Assembly (NCBI GenBank): GCA_016870485.1
Contig: VGBM01000001.1
Coordinates: 293,068-357,067, forward strand
Direction: 5' to 3'
Length of the DNA stretch: 64,000 bases
Source of the DNA: Actinomycetota bacterium
GTDB lineage: Bacteria; Actinomycetota; Thermoleophilia; Gaiellales; F1-60-MAGs149
The first letter of the stretch is position 1. Each line of letters starts with the position of its first letter. Below, piece by piece: positions 7,538 to 14,742 of this stretch. Under the pieces are notes generated by a model, which did not search any database, was not told the origin of the DNA, and worked only from the letters and a program-made list of their open reading frames with translations. A program made the position numbers and the translations under genes.

Positions 7538-8254
7538 ATGGAACTGACCTCGTCGCAGGAGCTGATCCTGTGGCTCGGCACCGCAGGCATGGCCGCCGGC
7601 GCCGCGATCATCGCCGCAATCGGCTTCAGCCTGCCGAACCACCAGCGGCACCACGTCACCGCGAGCTTCTTCGTCTGCGCAATCGCCGCCTGCGCCTACC
7701 TCGCGATGGCCACCGGCTCGGGCGTATGGATGGTCGACGACCAGCCCGTCTACTACGCCCGCTACCTCGACTGGCTCGTGACCACGCCGCTGCTCCTGCT
7801 CGGCCTGCTCACGGTCGGGTTCGCCCCGCTCACGGGCGGTGGGGAGGCCGGACGCACCCGCAACGGCCTGATCGGCTGGGTGCTCGGCGCGGACGTCCTG
7901 ATGATCGCCACCGGCCTCGTCGCGTCGCTGCGCGGCGACAGCAGCGATCGCTGGATCTGGTACGCCATCAGCCTCGTCTTCTTCCTGCTCGTGCTGTGGG
8001 GCCTGTTCGGCCCGGTCAAGCAGCACCTGGACGCGAAGATGACGCCGCTCTACACGAAGCTCCTGGGGATCCTGACGATCCTCTGGGTCATCTACCCGAT
8101 TCTCTGGGTCCTCGGCACCGAGGGCACCGGCGCGATCGGCCTGACCGGGGAGATCCTGGTCTTCGCGGTGATCGACGTGCTGAGCAAGGTCGGCTTCGGC
8201 ATCCTGCTGGTCCTCGGCATCAAGAGCATGTCGCGCTCGCACGCCGCGGCCTGA
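7538..8254 (+). CDS. Microbial (type-1) rhodopsin, DTG motif, probable outward proton pump
   Basis: Seven hydrophobic helices. Helix C RYLDWLVTTPLLLLGL (BR R82/D85/T89/G at 96), GADVLMI (D115/M118), LWVIYPILW, helix G IDVLSKVGFG (D212/K216). Confidence 0.95.
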   Translation: MELTSSQELILWLGTAGMAAGAAIIAAIGFSLPNHQRHHVTASFFVCAIAACAYLAMATGSGVWMVDDQPVYYARYLDWLVTTPLLLLGLLTVGFAPLTGGGEAGRTRNGLIGWVLGADVLMIATGLVASLRGDSSDRWIWYAISLVFFLLVLWGLFGPVKQHLDAKMTPLYTKLLGILTILWVIYPILWVLGTEGTGAIGLTGEILVFAVIDVLSKVGFGILLVLGIKSMSRSHAAA

Positions 8255-8299: not shown

Positions 8300-9568
8300 C
8301 TAGGCGTCCCCCCACGGCTCAAGCCGCCCGCCGTCCGCCCGGACGGCGCTCTCGCGCAGGAGCCGGTTGTACTTCGCGAGGCGCTCCGACCGGGTCAGCG
8401 AACCGACCTTGAGCTGCGCCGGGCCCGCGGCGATCGCGAGGTCGGCCAGCCAGTCGTCCTCGGTCTCCCCCGAGCGCGCCGACACGACCGCGCGCCAGCC
8501 CGCCGCGCGGGCGCGGGCCGCCACGGCCAGCGCCTCCGTCAGCGTGCCGACCTGGTTCGCCTTCACGAGCACCGCGTTGGCGGACGCGTCGCCGATCGCC
8601 CGCTCGAGGCGGTCGAGCTGCGTGCAGAGCAGGTCGTCGCCGATCACCTGCACGCAGTCGCCGACCGCGGCCGTGAAGGCGGGCCAGGCCGGCCAGTCGT
8701 CCTCCCCGAACGGGTCCTCGACGGACACCACCGGGTAGCGGCGCGTCCAGTCGGCGACCCGCTCGCCCCATGCCGCCGCGTCGAGGACCGCGTCGTCGGC
8801 GGCCAGCCGGTAGCCCGCGGCCGTCGCGAAGTGGCTCGCCGCCACGTCGAGGCCGATCGCCACGTCGCGGCCCGGCTCGAGGCCGGCGCGCTCGATCGCC
8901 CGGGTCACGATGATCAGGCCATCCTCGTTCGCGCCGAAGGCCGCGAAGCCGCCCTCGTCGGCGCGCAGGAGCGTCCGGCCAAGCTCGCCGAGCTCGACGG
9001 CGAGCGCGGCGAGGACGCGCGAGACGTCCTCGATCGCCTGCGGGAACGTCTCCGCGCGCAGCGGGATCGCCAGGTAGTCCTGCAGGTCGACGGCGCGCCC
9101 CGCGTGCAGCCCGCCCGAAAGCGCGTTCACCATCGGCCGCGGCAGGGCCGCGTGCTCCGCCCCGCCGAGGTGCCGCCAGAGCGGCAGGCCCAGGCTCGCC
9201 GCACCGGCCCGCGCGCACGCCACGGACGCGGCGAGCAGCGCGTTGCCGCCGAGCCGCGAGCGCTCCGGCGTGCCGTCCAGGGCCACCAGCGCGGCGTCGA
9301 TCGCGGCCTGGTCGGCGGCGTCCATGCCGCGCAGCCGCTCCGCGATCTCCCCGGTGACGTGGGCCGCGGCACGCAGGACGCCGCGCCCGCCGTAGCGGTC
9401 GGGGTCGCCGTCGCGCAGCTCGAGCGCCTCGTGGCGCCCCGTGGACGCGCCGGACGGGACGCTGGCACGGGCCAGGGTGCCGTCCTCGAGCACGACCTCG
9501 GCCTCGACGGTCGGCCGGCCGCGCGAGTCGAGGATCTCGAAGGCGCGCACCGCGTCGATCCGGCTCAC
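8300..9568 (-). CDS. Enolase-family protein (divergent phosphopyruvate hydratase paralog)
   Basis: EILDSRGRPTVEAEV, VPSGASTG, DEGGF, GDDL, LVKANQVG, RSERLAKYNRLL. QE is replaced by QD and SHRSGE by SARSGE. Confidence 0.9.
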   Translation of the reverse strand: MSRIDAVRAFEILDSRGRPTVEAEVVLEDGTLARASVPSGASTGRHEALELRDGDPDRYGGRGVLRAAAHVTGEIAERLRGMDAADQAAIDAALVALDGTPERSRLGGNALLAASVACARAGAASLGLPLWRHLGGAEHAALPRPMVNALSGGLHAGRAVDLQDYLAIPLRAETFPQAIEDVSRVLAALAVELGELGRTLLRADEGGFAAFGANEDGLIIVTRAIERAGLEPGRDVAIGLDVAASHFATAAGYRLAADDAVLDAAAWGERVADWTRRYPVVSVEDPFGEDDWPAWPAFTAAVGDCVQVIGDDLLCTQLDRLERAIGDASANAVLVKANQVGTLTEALAVAARARAAGWRAVVSARSGETEDDWLADLAIAAGPAQLKVGSLTRSERLAKYNRLLRESAVRADGGRLEPWGDA

Positions 9569-10560
9569 GCCCCCACCTCCACGCGCTCGAGCGCGCGCAT
9601 CACGGTCGCGGGCGGGTCGAGCACCAGCGAGCGGCCGAGGGCGCGGGCGCGGTCGCGGGAGCGCGCGTCGAGGTACTCGGCCGGCGACTTGCCATCGACC
9701 CGGGCCACCATCAGGACCCCGAGCTCCGCCACGACCGCCGGCTCGTCGGCGAGCCCGGGCGCCGCCTCGGCGTGGGCGCCGTGGAGCGCCCGCGCCAGCG
9801 CGACCAGGAGCGCGCGCTGGCGCGGCAGGTGCAGGGCCTTGAGGCAGAGGTGGTTGAGACAGAAGGCGACATCGAAGGCCGGATCGCCCCAGTGCGCCAC
9901 CTCGACGTCGATGACGAGCATGCGGTCCGGGTAGGCCAGCAGGTTCTTCGGGGCGTAGTCGCCGAGGACGAGCGCGCGGCGGGTGCCTAGGAGCCGCTCG
10001 ACCTCCGCCGCGATCGCGGGGGCGAGATCGGGGTGGCGGGCGGCGGTGAAGCGGTGGTACGGGTCGATCCGGCCCTCGACCAGCGTGGTCAGGTCGTCGA
10101 ACGCCGCCGACACCGCCGGATCGGCCGCCGAGGCCGCGTGGACCCGGCCGAGCAGGTCACCCGCGCGATAGGCGTCGCGCATGTCGATCTCGCCGGCTAG
10201 GAGCCGCTCCTTCCACGGAGCGCCGCCCGCGGGCGCGCACTCCATCGCGAACACGTGCCGGTCCTCGTCGGCGAAGACCACCGCTGGCGCGTGGCCCGGG
10301 CCGAGCAGGCGGCCGATCGTCGCGAGCGCGCGCTGCTCCACGGAGCTGCGCCCCACGTCGTACGCCCACACCTCCTCCACGCGCAGGAAGGGCAGCGCCT
10401 GCTTGACGACGATCCCGTCGCCGCCGCCCGGCCAGCGCACGCGCCAGACGTCGTTGGAGATGCCGCCGCCGAGCGCGTCGATCTCGAGCGCGACCCCGGC
10501 AGGGACGGCGCCATGCGCCGCCAGGTACGCGGGCAGATCGGCGGCGGTGAGCGCCTCCAC
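9565..10560 (-). CDS. APH/choline-kinase-fold phosphotransferase, methylthioribose kinase (MtnK)-like
   Basis: C-terminal part of ORF 9565..11463 from GTG 10560: GGGISNDVWRV, VVKQALPFLRV, LGDYAPKN, IDVEVAHWGDPAFD. Stop overlaps the enolase start by 4 nt. Confidence 0.85.
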   Translation of the reverse strand: MEALTAADLPAYLAAHGAVPAGVALEIDALGGGISNDVWRVRWPGGGDGIVVKQALPFLRVEEVWAYDVGRSSVEQRALATIGRLLGPGHAPAVVFADEDRHVFAMECAPAGGAPWKERLLAGEIDMRDAYRAGDLLGRVHAASAADPAVSAAFDDLTTLVEGRIDPYHRFTAARHPDLAPAIAAEVERLLGTRRALVLGDYAPKNLLAYPDRMLVIDVEVAHWGDPAFDVAFCLNHLCLKALHLPRQRALLVALARALHGAHAEAAPGLADEPAVVAELGVLMVARVDGKSPAEYLDARSRDRARALGRSLVLDPPATVMRALERVEVGA

Positions 10561-10596
10561 GGCCGGAGTATCCCCGATCGCGCCTACCCTGTGCCC

Positions 10597-11507
<911 letters not shown>

Positions 11508-11511
<4 letters not shown>

Positions 11512-12404
11512 GCGCGCGGATCCACGACGTCCGCTACCGCCCCTTCGGCGGGGAGCTGCAGGGCTCGACGCCCCGCGCCGTCACGTCGATGGGGCGCTGG
11601 AGCGCGCTGCGCGCCCTCGGCGCGCGCCGGCCCTGGACGGCGAAGGTGGTGCCGGTCGTGCTTGCCCTGATCGCCCTCGGGCCCGCCGTCACCGTGCTCG
11701 GGGTCAAGAGCCTGATCGGCGGCGACTTCGCGGAGCAGCTGCCGACGGACCTCGTCCCGTACGCCTTCTACTACACGCTGATCGGGTTCGCGATCTGGGC
11801 CTACGCGGCGATCGTCATCCCCGAGACGATCTGCCCCGACCGGCGCAGCCGCGTCCTCGACCTCTACCTGTCGACGGCGATGAGCCCGCTCGAGTACGTG
11901 CTCGGGAAGATCGTCGCGTCGCTCGTGCCGCTCCTGGCGGTCACCACCCTCCCCCTCGCCGTCCTCTACGTCGGCAACGTCTTCTTCGCAACCGACCCGT
12001 TCGGCTACATCGGCGACAACCTGCGCGAGATCCCCGCCATCCTCGGCGGTGGCATCCTAATCGCGTTCGTCTACACGCTGATGGGGCTGGCCGTGGCCTC
12101 CCTGACCAGCCGCCGCGCGTTCGCAAGCGTCGGCTTCATCCTGCTGCTCGTGATCTCCGGCCTCGGGGCCGGCGCGCTGGCGGAGGTCGCCGACCTCGGC
12201 CCGAACGCCCGCATGGTCAACCTGCAGGCCCTGCCCGTGTGGGTCGCGCAGATCATGATCGGCGGCGAGCAGATCGACGGTGGCGACGGCCCGTTCGCCG
12301 CTGCCAACCGCCCCGACCTCGTCCCGCTGTTGATTGCCAACGCCGTGGTGATCGTCGTCTGCACGGGCGTTCTCTGGCTGCGCTACCGGAGGCGGGGCAC
12401 GTGA
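11508..12404 (+). CDS. ABC-2 type transporter permease
   Basis: Multi-TM ORF with ICPDRRSRVLDLYLS...EYVLGK motif. 4-nt overlaps with both flanking ATPases. Confidence 0.88.
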
Positions 12405-13333
12405 ACGCGCTGCTCGAGTTCGACCGAGTATCGAAGTGGTTCCGCGACACGGTCGCCGTCGGCGACGTCTCCTTCGCGATCGAGCCCGGCGTCACCGGCC
12501 TCCTGGGCCACAACGGCGCCGGCAAGTCGACGGCTATCCGCCTCGCGGCGGGCCTCGCCCGCCCCGACGAGGGCGCGGTGCGCATCCTCGGCGAGGACCC
12601 GCGCACGAGCGGCGCGGCCCGCGCCTCGCTCGGCCTCGTGCCGGACGGCGACGGGATCTGGCCCGGGCTGACCGCGCGCGGCTTCGTCGAGGCCTGCGCG
12701 CGCCTGCGCGGCGTCGGCGGCCCCGGCGCCGCCGCGGACGCGGCGCTCGCCGCGGTCGACCTGGCCGACGTCGCGGACCGCGACGTCAAGGGGTTCTCGC
12801 AGGGCATGCGCCAGCGGGTCAAGATCGCGCAGGCGCTCGTGCACCGCCCCCGCGTCCTGATCCTCGACGAGCCGCTCAACGGCCTCGATCCGGGCCAGCG
12901 CGAGAGCGTGATCGCGCTCCTGCACCGGCTCGGCGCCGACGGCACGGCGATCGTCTTCTCGAGCCACGTGCTCGGCGAGGTGGAGCGGATCGCCGACCGC
13001 GTGCTGGTGCTCGTCAACGGCCGGCTCGTGGCGGAGGGCGCGCCGCCCGCGCTGCGCGCCCTGATGGAGGAGCGCCCTCGGCGCGTGCGCGTCGAGACCG
13101 ATCGCCCGCGCGTCCTCGCGGCGGGCATCGCCGGCCTCGAGGGCGTCGGACGCGTGGACGTCGACGAGGACGCGCTGGTCGTCGAGACCAGCCGCCCCGC
13201 CGACCTCGCCCTCGTCCTGCCGGGGCTCGCCCGCGACGCCGGCGCCGACCTCACCGCCGTCGAGCCCACCGACGAGGACCTCGAGAGCGTCTACAGCTAC
13301 CTGACCGAGCGGGCCCGCGGGGTGCGCCGGTGA
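12401..13333 (+). CDS. ABC transporter ATP-binding protein (second ATPase)
   Basis: From GTG 12401: GHNGAGKST, FSQGMRQR, ILDEPLNGLD, SSHVL. Confidence 0.93.
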   Translation: MNALLEFDRVSKWFRDTVAVGDVSFAIEPGVTGLLGHNGAGKSTAIRLAAGLARPDEGAVRILGEDPRTSGAARASLGLVPDGDGIWPGLTARGFVEACARLRGVGGPGAAADAALAAVDLADVADRDVKGFSQGMRQRVKIAQALVHRPRVLILDEPLNGLDPGQRESVIALLHRLGADGTAIVFSSHVLGEVERIADRVLVLVNGRLVAEGAPPALRALMEERPRRVRVETDRPRVLAAGIAGLEGVGRVDVDEDALVVETSRPADLALVLPGLARDAGADLTAVEPTDEDLESVYSYLTERARGVRR

Positions 13334-14043
13334 TCGTCACGCGGCTCGCGATCCGCGCACTCCTCCTGCGCCGGCGCTCGCTCGCGCTCCTCCTGCCCGT
13401 CGCCAGCGTGCCGTTCTTCGTCGCGCTCGGGATCGTGCGTGGCGACGTCACTCCCGACTCGCAGGCGATCATCGTCGGACGCCTGCTCGTGACCACCGTA
13501 ACCCCGCTCGTCGCGCTCGTCCTCGCGGTGACGGCGATCGGCGACGAGCGCGAGAGCGGCACCATCGTCTACCTGGCCACGGCGCGGCTGTCCCGGATCC
13601 GGGTGGCCGCCGAGAAGGCGCTGGCCGCGATCGCGTGCTCCGTCGTCCTGCTCTCCCCCGCTCTCCTCGCCGCAGCCTACTTCGGCGTGCACCTCGGGGT
13701 CGGCGTGGACAACATCCTGCGCGGCGTGCTCGGCACCATCCTCGTGGCCGCGGTCTACGCCGCGGTCTTCGTAGCCGTCGGGCTCCTGCTCAAGCGTGCG
13801 CTCGTGGCCGGCATCGTCTACGTCCTGATCTGGGAGGGCGCGATCGCCACGGTCGCGCCGTCCGCCGAGCGCTTCTCCCTGACCGCGTGGGGCCGCGCCA
13901 TCACCGACGGCGGCCTGTCGCCGCTCGAGGACGGCCTCGTGCCCACCCTGTCGGCCCAGACCGGCGTGGTCGCGCTCCTCGTCGTCACCGCCGCGGCCAT
14001 CCTGCTCGCCGGGCTCCGCCTCGGCCGCATGGACCTGCCCTAG
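13330..14043 (+). CDS. ABC-2 type transporter permease (second)
   Basis: From GTG 13330: IGDERESGTIVYLATARLSRIRVAAEK; six hydrophobic segments. Confidence 0.88.
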   Translation: MIVTRLAIRALLLRRRSLALLLPVASVPFFVALGIVRGDVTPDSQAIIVGRLLVTTVTPLVALVLAVTAIGDERESGTIVYLATARLSRIRVAAEKALAAIACSVVLLSPALLAAAYFGVHLGVGVDNILRGVLGTILVAAVYAAVFVAVGLLLKRALVAGIVYVLIWEGAIATVAPSAERFSLTAWGRAITDGGLSPLEDGLVPTLSAQTGVVALLVVTAAAILLAGLRLGRMDLP

Positions 14044-14618
14044 GCCGGTCCCGCGAGGGCGGCGAGCTCGGCGTCGAGCAGCCCCCGCACCGCACGCGGC
14101 GCCTTCGTGCCGCAGCGCAGGTGCCAGATCAGGCCGCCGAGGAGCGTGCCGAGGCGCTCCGCGGCCACGCGCGGCTCCACGTCCGCGGGCAGTTGGCCGG
14201 CCACCCGGGCGGCCTCGATCTCCCGGGCCAGCGCCCGCTCCCAGCGCTCGTTGCGCGCGCGCACGGCGCGCCGCACCGCCGGGTCGAACGCGGCGATCCG
14301 CTCGTACTCCGCGAAGACAGCGCGGTACTCGCGCGCCGCCGCCGTGTCGGCGATCTCGTGGACCAGCAGGAGGCGCAGGCGCGCGAGCGGGTCGTCGAGC
14401 CGGGCCAGGGCGCGGTCCGAGCGCGCCCACTCGCGCTCCTCGTGGTGGGCGAAGGCGGCCAGCACGATCGCCTCCACGGTCGGCCAGTAGTAGAGCGGCA
14501 GCCCCCGCGAGACGCCGGCCTCGCGGGCGATCACCCCGGCCCGCACGCCCGGGGCGCCGTCCCGCGCGATCACTCGGCAGGTGGCCTCGAGGATCTGGGT
14601 GCGGCGGTCGGGCTCCAC
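14040..14618 (-). CDS. TetR family transcriptional regulator
   Basis: RRTQILEATCRVIARDG...IAREAGVSRGLPLYYW HTH. Start GTG 14618 (ORF extends to 14660). Confidence 0.9.
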   Translation of the reverse strand: MEPDRRTQILEATCRVIARDGAPGVRAGVIAREAGVSRGLPLYYWPTVEAIVLAAFAHHEEREWARSDRALARLDDPLARLRLLLVHEIADTAAAREYRAVFAEYERIAAFDPAVRRAVRARNERWERALAREIEAARVAGQLPADVEPRVAAERLGTLLGGLIWHLRCGTKAPRAVRGLLDAELAALAGPA

Positions 14619-14742
14619 GCGGGGATGATGGCGGATCCCCGGGCCGCAGGTTGGGGCCATCGCGGGCGCGGCGGGACGCCGCCTCGGCGGAGGTCAGGCC
14701 CGCGGCGTCCACCCCGGCATCGTGGGTCGTCGCCACGGGGCG

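Follow-up and report, generated by a model that had tools for sequence, protein, structure and literature searches.

Enolase is generally treated as an enzyme with a single function. The housekeeping form (EC 4.2.1.11; TIGR01060) is found in glycolytic or cell-division gene contexts, and its residues Glu168 and His373 (yeast numbering), at the C3-hydroxyl/water site, are near-invariant. In the lower branch of the non-phosphorylative Entner-Doudoroff and glycerate pathways, a glyceraldehyde dehydrogenase or oxidoreductase, or a hydroxypyruvate reductase, is followed by a glycerate 2-kinase (MOFRL or GlxK/GarK) and then by enolase. A kinase of the APH fold acting with a beta-elimination partner is found in the lanthipeptide dehydratase LxmK/LxmY (PDB 9dk3). 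Here we describe a pair of overlapping genes, encoding an MtnK-fold kinase and an enolase paralog with a changed active site, in a 64,000-nucleotide stretch of an Actinomycetota genome (assembly GCA_016870485.1, contig VGBM01000001.1, positions 293,068 to 357,067; hereafter the window). A full-text literature search found no publication on this kinase-variant enolase pair. The features of the pair, in window coordinates, are as follows.

9565-10560, minus strand: MtnK-fold, APH-family small-molecule kinase; 331 amino acids, GTG start (open reading frame [ORF] and translation)
8300-9568, minus strand: variant enolase paralog of the Asp168/Ala373 type (yeast numbering); 422 amino acids, GTG start
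9565-9568, minus strand: GTGA overlap of 4 nucleotides, formed by the kinase TGA (9565-9567) and the enolase GTG (9566-9568), read directly
9943-9966, minus strand: kinase catalytic loop LGDYAPKN, a variant of HGDxxxxN, with G200, D201, P204, K205 and N206
9077-9079, minus strand: enolase Asp164 (yeast Glu168; LQDY), codon GAC
8477-8479, minus strand: enolase Ala364 (yeast His373; SARSGETED), codon GCG
8960-8962, minus strand: enolase Ala203 (GDEGG to ADEGG, two residues ahead of the catalytic Glu, yeast E211), codon GCC
9116-9118, minus strand: enolase Ser151 (yeast Asn155; NGG to SGG, at the start of the His159 loop), codon TCG

The comparative data show that the two genes belong together as a functional unit, in all likelihood a metabolic module apart from housekeeping glycolysis. 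Neither ORF is interrupted, and on the minus strand the kinase gene is upstream of the enolase gene. Direct reading of the sequence confirmed the GTGA overlap described in an earlier note on this DNA; the overlap is also kept at a 90%-identical locus (L008), and comparison with that locus revealed purifying selection on both genes: dN/dS, the ratio of nonsynonymous to synonymous substitution rates, is 0.13 in the kinase gene and 0.16 in the enolase gene. When a single genome from each GTDB species was scanned with a degenerate pattern, at least 599 stretches matched, and 589 of those listed encode kinase relatives. Locus counts were taken from the best 80 kinase loci among these stretches, which lie in Actinomycetota, Acidobacteriota, Chloroflexota, Planctomycetota, Verrucomicrobiota, Bacteroidota, Atribacterota and Halobacteria. 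At 63 of these loci, spread over some eight phyla with haloarchaea among them, the enolase is directly downstream of the kinase on the same strand, and the linkage of enolases with the QD/SARS motifs to this kinase family, which the earlier note had raised, is thus borne out well beyond the window. In two clusters, P0139 and P0170 (the latter at L125, 252-2564), the kinase and the variant enolase are fused in a single polypeptide that displays QDY or QDF, ADEGG, and SARSGE or SGRSGE.

The presence of the two genes was also followed in whole genomes. A canonical eno gene is present in 16 of 16 genomes reached via kinase loci, and 15 of these encode the variant enolase as well; kinase and variant enolase are unlinked in six of them, all Dehalococcoidia. 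The window belongs to contig 1 of an assembly that totals 2.13 Mb and is 94% complete, and the canonical eno supposed to lie elsewhere in this genome was located on contig 2, adjoining a mazG-like gene; its product carries LQEF, GDEGG and SHRSGETED and scores 628 bits against TIGR01060. In a sample of 301 genomes spread across the phylum, the SARSGETED DNA pattern was found in four. The kinase adjoins the motif in the three besides the window genome, and it was not found in nine controls chosen from the same family or order, so that motif and kinase co-occur exactly in this sample. At two loci from long ENA contigs (L006 and L007), the enolase that follows the kinase is fragmented or has its N-terminus merged into the kinase call; these breaks look like assembly indels rather than real pseudogenes.

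The window enolase contains both enolase domains in full (PF03952, E 1e-52; PF00113, E 1e-70) and scores 451.6 bits against TIGR01060, whose cut-off is 300. It is about 45-50% identical to housekeeping enolases, and its nearest solved structures are 4mks and 7ckp. A HMMER alignment to these two places the window's LQDY opposite [IV]QEF and its SARSGETED opposite SHRSGETED, which, with the codons GAC and GCG, upholds the two replacements first proposed, Glu168 to Asp and His373 to Ala. Alignment and motif mapping also agree with the earlier note that the equivalents of S39, H159, E211, D246, E295, D320, K345, R374, S375 and K396 are kept. The Mg ligands, the phosphate and carboxylate binders and the acid/base residues are thus all retained, as is the two-domain fold with its Lys345/Glu211 pair, and elimination chemistry on a 2-phospho acid is accordingly predicted from these residues to be retained too. 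Two further changes that the note had not listed, Ala203 in ADEGG and Ser151 in SGG, proved to be family-wide.

Residues were counted in 68 kinase-associated enolases and in 18 housekeeping enolases of the same genomes. Position 168 is Asp in all 68 and Glu in all 18 canonical sequences. Position 373 is Ala in 66 of the 67 variant enolases that have a residue there (the other has Gly) and His in 18 of 18. The residue preceding Asp-Glu211 (yeast Gly209) is Ala in 68 of 68 as against Gly in 18 of 18, and position 155 is Ser in 61 of 68, the others having Gly, as against Asn in 18 of 18. A maximum-likelihood tree (quick IQ-TREE search) separates the 68 variant from the 18 canonical enolases by one branch with an SH-like approximate likelihood-ratio support (SH-aLRT) of 99, the window enolase falling in the variant group. 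As far as the aligned sequences go, the four pocket changes are the family signature of kinase-associated enolases. The four positions cluster where canonical enolase holds C3 and its hydroxyl, and two of them, Glu168 and His373, are catalytically important; Poyner and colleagues (1996, cited in PMC4450660) reportedly studied a Glu168 mutation along with catalytic residues of enolase. Judging from side-chain size, the C3 pocket of the variant may be enlarged. The variant thus differs from the housekeeping enzyme in its pocket and its place in the tree, in occurring alongside canonical eno in the genomes checked, and in being encoded with, or fused to, a kinase rather than in a glycolytic or cell-division context. 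As for the precedent for recruitment that had been cited from phosphinothricin biosynthesis, the enolase homologue of that pathway is probably PhpH, with PhpG the mutase homologue, and the attribution to PhpG was probably wrong.

In Pfam the kinase matches APH alone (PF01636, E 4e-10), and in NCBIfam it has weak matches to the MtnK and LxmK models only. Its AlphaFold (AF2) model has a predicted local distance difference test score (pLDDT) of 93.8, and the top Foldseek hits are the 5-methylthioribose kinase (MtnK) structures 2pyw and 2olc (TM 0.81-0.82, E 4e-15), with which it shares 19-20% identity; the next fold matches are PsiK and LxmK. The Pfam match, this model and direct reading together support the APH/MtnK fold and the LGDYAPKN loop originally assigned to the protein. 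Among 18 diverse kinase relatives, G200, D201, P204, K205 and N206 of the loop are invariant, its first residue being L or H, and so are the other APH hallmarks, namely the ATP-binding K53 (VVKQA) and the metal-binding D218 (IDVE), beside D201 and N206. The same relatives have two family-specific motifs in common, RIDPYH and DGKSPxEY. R164, H169, R287, K291 and R306 are conserved across the family, and these Arg, Lys and His residues fit with an anionic substrate.

MtnK is the best structural match to the kinase and shares with it the N-lobe motifs (G-loop, the Lys of VKQA, LRV..W) and the catalytic Asp loop. The kinase is, however, about 65 residues shorter, its loop reads [LH]GDY[AS]PKN where that of MtnK reads GDLHTGS, and RIDPYH and DGKSPxEY belong to its own family. 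Against the MtnK model TIGR01767 it scores 60.5 bits (cut-off 275), with the N-lobe alone aligned, and no methionine-salvage gene turned up when 146 neighbouring ORFs were sorted by family. The score and the lack of salvage neighbours rule out an identity as MtnK or a role in methionine salvage. Pfam and NCBIfam likewise showed no homology of the kinase to the known glycerate kinase families (GlxK/GarK, PF02595; MOFRL class II; plant GLYK), so that, as a glycerate kinase, it would be non-homologous to them. The true start of the kinase gene is the GTG at 10560. The window also contains very long spurious ORFs antisense to, or extending, real genes (for example 9565-11463 on the minus strand and 8831-9934 on the plus strand); one, of 632 amino acids, is the kinase frame extended upstream across an ABC ATPase gene, as is typical of DNA with 75% G+C.

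The gene neighbourhoods in other genomes bear on the origin of the substrate. A gene for a D-isomer-specific 2-hydroxyacid dehydrogenase (2-Hacid_dh) can be found directly after the enolase gene, ahead of the kinase gene, or fused to the latter (P0262). Flammeovirga and Flavivirga have an operon with the order aldehyde dehydrogenase (ALDH)-kinase-enolase; at L010 a molybdenum (Mo)-aldehyde oxidase operon accompanies the pair, and at L028 an ILVD/EDD sugar-acid dehydratase and an RraA-type aldolase are encoded immediately upstream. The order at L020 is AKR-kinase-enolase-2-Hacid_dh-DeoC aldolase-FGGY kinase. GlcD-like FAD dehydrogenases and xylose-isomerase-like barrels (Hyi-type fold) occur among the neighbours, SDR, MR/MLE and FAH genes recur as well, and sulfatase and sulfite-oxidase-family genes are present in a few neighbourhoods. 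Subtyping of the linked ALDH and 2-Hacid_dh proteins with NCBIfam gave no match above cut-off; the best match of the linked dehydrogenases, below cut-off, was phosphoglycerate dehydrogenase. The recurrent partners, namely the D-2-hydroxyacid dehydrogenases, the aldehyde-oxidising enzymes and the sugar-acid dehydratase with its aldolase, are of the kinds that form a 2-hydroxy acid out of an aldehyde or a 2-oxo acid. In the non-phosphorylative Entner-Doudoroff and glycerate pathways the acid so formed from glyceraldehyde or hydroxypyruvate is D-glycerate, and for this reason a C3 acid fits the partners no less well than a tetronate or pentonate does. Enzymes of a putatively glycerate-forming type adjoin kinase and enolase at a minority of loci in other genomes.

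The kinase is also found without the enolase. PF09370, a TIM barrel resembling phosphoenolpyruvate (PEP) hydrolase, is fused to it in four clusters (P0135, P0155, P0161, P0221), which shows that the kinase can work with partners besides enolase. One such fusion (L124, 4068-5906) lies beside GntR, SDR, GlcD-like and xylose-isomerase-like genes on a 7-kb contig in which no enolase gene was found. The fusions are compatible with a phospho-carboxylate product. Elsewhere the kinase is fused to an FGGY sugar-kinase N-domain or to a MobA-like NTP transferase (P0156, P0238), and all three kinds of fusion retain the kinase family motifs. The usual partner of PF09370 is the UPF0261 kinase domain. It is this UPF0261 domain, and not the kinase of the present pair, that the paper on the aromatic kinase MarK (PMC12624787) concerns.

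In Dehalococcoidia, kinase loci (L037, L046, L061, L072, L075, L086, L087) lie between genes for luciferase-like oxidoreductases, RibH and a conserved 230-amino-acid protein, and the variant enolase (L105-L109, L111) occurs with ORFs judged by eye to be cupin-like, RsmG-like and AOR-like. The luciferase-like oxidoreductases and RibH, together with the MobA-like transferase seen beside the kinase, had brought up a link to cofactor F420 through 2-phospholactate. This link was rejected: phospholactate offers an enolase nothing to eliminate, and the MobA-like gene is better matched with maturation of the neighbouring Mo-aldehyde oxidase. We know of no use of F420 by the Bacteroidota that carry the pair.

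Judged from residues, linkage and neighbours, it seems conceivable that the pair acts on D-glycerate or a very close C3 analogue and gives PEP or a PEP analogue, a reading that we put forward tentatively and regard as nearly, though not quite, an even call. The MtnK-fold kinase would phosphorylate the 2-hydroxyl of a small 2-hydroxy carboxylic acid, most simply D-glycerate, in which case it would represent an undescribed, non-homologous kind of glycerate 2-kinase. The variant enolase would then bind the 2-phospho-carboxylate with two Mg ions, remove the C2 proton via the conserved Lys (yeast K345) and expel the C3 leaving group via the conserved Glu (yeast E211), and the resulting PEP or PEP analogue would enter central metabolism. 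In other genomes the acid might be supplied by the adjacent D-2-hydroxyacid dehydrogenases, acting from 2-oxo acid to D-2-hydroxy acid, or alternatively by aldehyde dehydrogenases or oxidases following sugar-acid dehydratase and aldolase steps. The resemblance to the glycerate branch described above would lie in the order of an aldehyde or oxo-acid enzyme, a kinase and an enolase, as suggested by the neighbours elsewhere, with the dehydratase and aldolase of L028 in addition; the differences are a kinase unrelated to known glycerate kinases, a private enolase with an altered pocket, and a substrate that is putative. LxmK/LxmY offers a second parallel, an APH-fold kinase with an elimination partner, LxmK being among the nearer fold matches; there, however, the phosphate leaves, while here, to judge from the enolase architecture, it would remain on C2 and the group on C3 would be expelled. 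The phosphorylate-then-dehydrate scheme of the earlier note thus survives as the most economical reading of the pair. Its proposal of a substrate longer than glycerate fares less well, the partners fitting a C3 acid, and a 2-keto-3-deoxy acid would not be the direct product, which would instead be an enol phosphate (PEP or an analogue).

Several observations weigh against D-glycerate. If the intermediate were ordinary 2-phospho-D-glycerate, the housekeeping enolase of every genome would suffice; the four pocket changes and the strict co-inheritance of the two genes are hard to explain with plain 2-phosphoglycerate and argue against it. No dehydrogenase or aldehyde-oxidising partner was found within the 64-kb window. 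Beyond the pair itself the neighbourhoods are heterogeneous, no partner being present at more than about one-sixth of the loci. Finally, some kinases have no adjacent enolase or are fused to PF09370, FGGY or NTP-transferase domains, from which it follows that the family may not be confined to a single substrate.

Another reading, which we consider a serious possibility, somewhat short of probable, is that the Asp168/Ala373 enolases and their private kinase form a phosphorylate-then-eliminate system for a 2-hydroxy acid beyond the reach of the housekeeping enzyme, yielding PEP or an analogue. The acid could be substituted at C3, lose a group that is not hydroxyl, or have the opposite configuration; the system would operate in hundreds of bacterial and archaeal species, and the enolase subgroup, otherwise of a single function, would thereby gain its first family of divergent function.

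The more specific forms of this idea can be set against the same evidence. A longer or C3-substituted 2-phospho acid (erythronate, threonate, 2,3-dihydroxybutanoate, tartrate and the like), dehydrated in an enlarged pocket to a substituted phosphoenol-2-oxo acid, is unlikely but would account for several features: the Glu-to-Asp, His-to-Ala, Gly-to-Ala and Asn-to-Ser changes, invariant or nearly so in the clade, surround the C3/hydroxyl site, the enolase is strictly co-inherited with a private kinase despite the presence of a normal eno, and sugar-acid genes are frequent among the neighbours. However, no neighbour specific for tetronate or pentonate recurs, and the ALDH, AOR, Mo-aldehyde oxidase and 2-Hacid_dh partners are most simply matched with C3 aldehydes and oxo acids. 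Moreover, two smaller side chains gain little room, and no conserved enzyme is encoded nearby that could use a substituted PEP analogue.

Still less probable, in our estimate, is an unchanged carbon skeleton with another leaving group or stereochemistry, in which PEP would arise from a 2-phospho-3-X-propanoate that the housekeeping enolase cannot use. Candidates are 2-phospho-3-sulfolactate, with sulfite leaving, 2,3-bisphosphoglycerate, with phosphate leaving, and the L-enantiomer of 2-phosphoglycerate. Such a substrate would account for a dedicated enolase even with PEP still the product. The ALDH, AOR and 2-Hacid_dh partners fit the conversion of sulfolactaldehyde or sulfopyruvate to sulfolactate, or of glyceraldehyde 3-phosphate or 3-phosphohydroxypyruvate to 3-phosphoglycerate, as well as they fit the formation of glycerate; the sub-cut-off match of the linked dehydrogenases to phosphoglycerate dehydrogenase and the few neighbourhoods with sulfatases or sulfite-oxidase-family genes point the same way. 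For a sulfonate or phosphate leaving group, however, the two acidic residues beside C3 (Asp168 and Glu211) are unfavourable, and a residue survey of the variant clade found no new conserved basic residue. No sulfite exporter or dehydrogenase recurs. A route from 3-phosphoglycerate through 2,3-bisphosphoglycerate to PEP, bypassing phosphoglycerate mutase, has a low probability, for it would waste ATP and place a phosphate beside two carboxylates; the L-enantiomer is disfavoured by the linked dehydrogenases, which belong to a D-specific family.

That the two proteins share no pathway at all, a redundant, moonlighting or decaying enolase adjoining a methylthioribose or antibiotic kinase by chance, is highly improbable: the enolase does exceed the TIGR01060 equivalog cut-off and some sources name kinase relatives '5-methylthioribose kinase', but the adjacency is kept over about eight phyla and two domains, fusions exist, co-occurrence in the sample is exact, the enolases form a separate clade with invariant substitutions, both genes are under purifying selection, and the MtnK score of 60 is far below the cut-off of 275. 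Decay or redundancy of the paralog, in particular, is ruled out by the dN/dS values of 0.13-0.16, the clade-wide signature and the fusions.

Annotation pipelines call the variant enolase 'phosphopyruvate hydratase' because its score lies above the equivalog cut-off, and the kinase is entered as 'phosphotransferase' or, wrongly, as 'methylthioribose kinase'. An exhaustive HMMER search at E <= 1e-30 recovered 669 kinase-family clusters at 50% identity, and the family, with at least this number of clusters, is represented in abundant soil, freshwater and marine lineages; the carriers include Thermoleophilia, Bryobacterales, Dehalococcoidia, flavobacteria and haloarchaea, with Paludibaculum fermentans, Flavivirga algicola and Flammeovirga sp. 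among the cultivated ones. Should the pair constitute a new glycerate 2-kinase route, it would supply a step missing from the sugar-acid, glyoxylate and serine catabolism reconstructed for the carrier lineages; should the substrate be something else, it would represent a novel enzyme activity and a novel way into PEP.

In the window, whose G+C content is about 75%, the gene order is obg, nadD, rsfS, a TetR gene, an ABC-2 exporter, the kinase-enolase pair, a rhodopsin gene, leuS and comEA/EC. A scan for promoters and terminators found none, as expected at this G+C content. The pair is surrounded by housekeeping genes in a 72%-identical relative (L121) as well. Its immediate neighbours in the window are the following.

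10600-14660, divergently transcribed, flanking the kinase gene: ABC-2-type exporter of four genes (two ATPases, two permeases) with a TetR regulator
7538-8254, plus strand: microbial rhodopsin, 238 amino acids (PF01036, E 3e-54), convergent with the enolase gene, the stop codons being 45 nucleotides apart

The exporter and its TetR regulator are syntenic in L121 (3958-7982) and have no obvious functional tie to the kinase-enolase pair. The rhodopsin has RYLDWLVTTPLLLLGL as its helix C, with a D-T-G pattern judged by eye, and its retinal-binding Lys lies within DVLSK; the order kinase-enolase-rhodopsin-leuS is the same in L121 as in the window.

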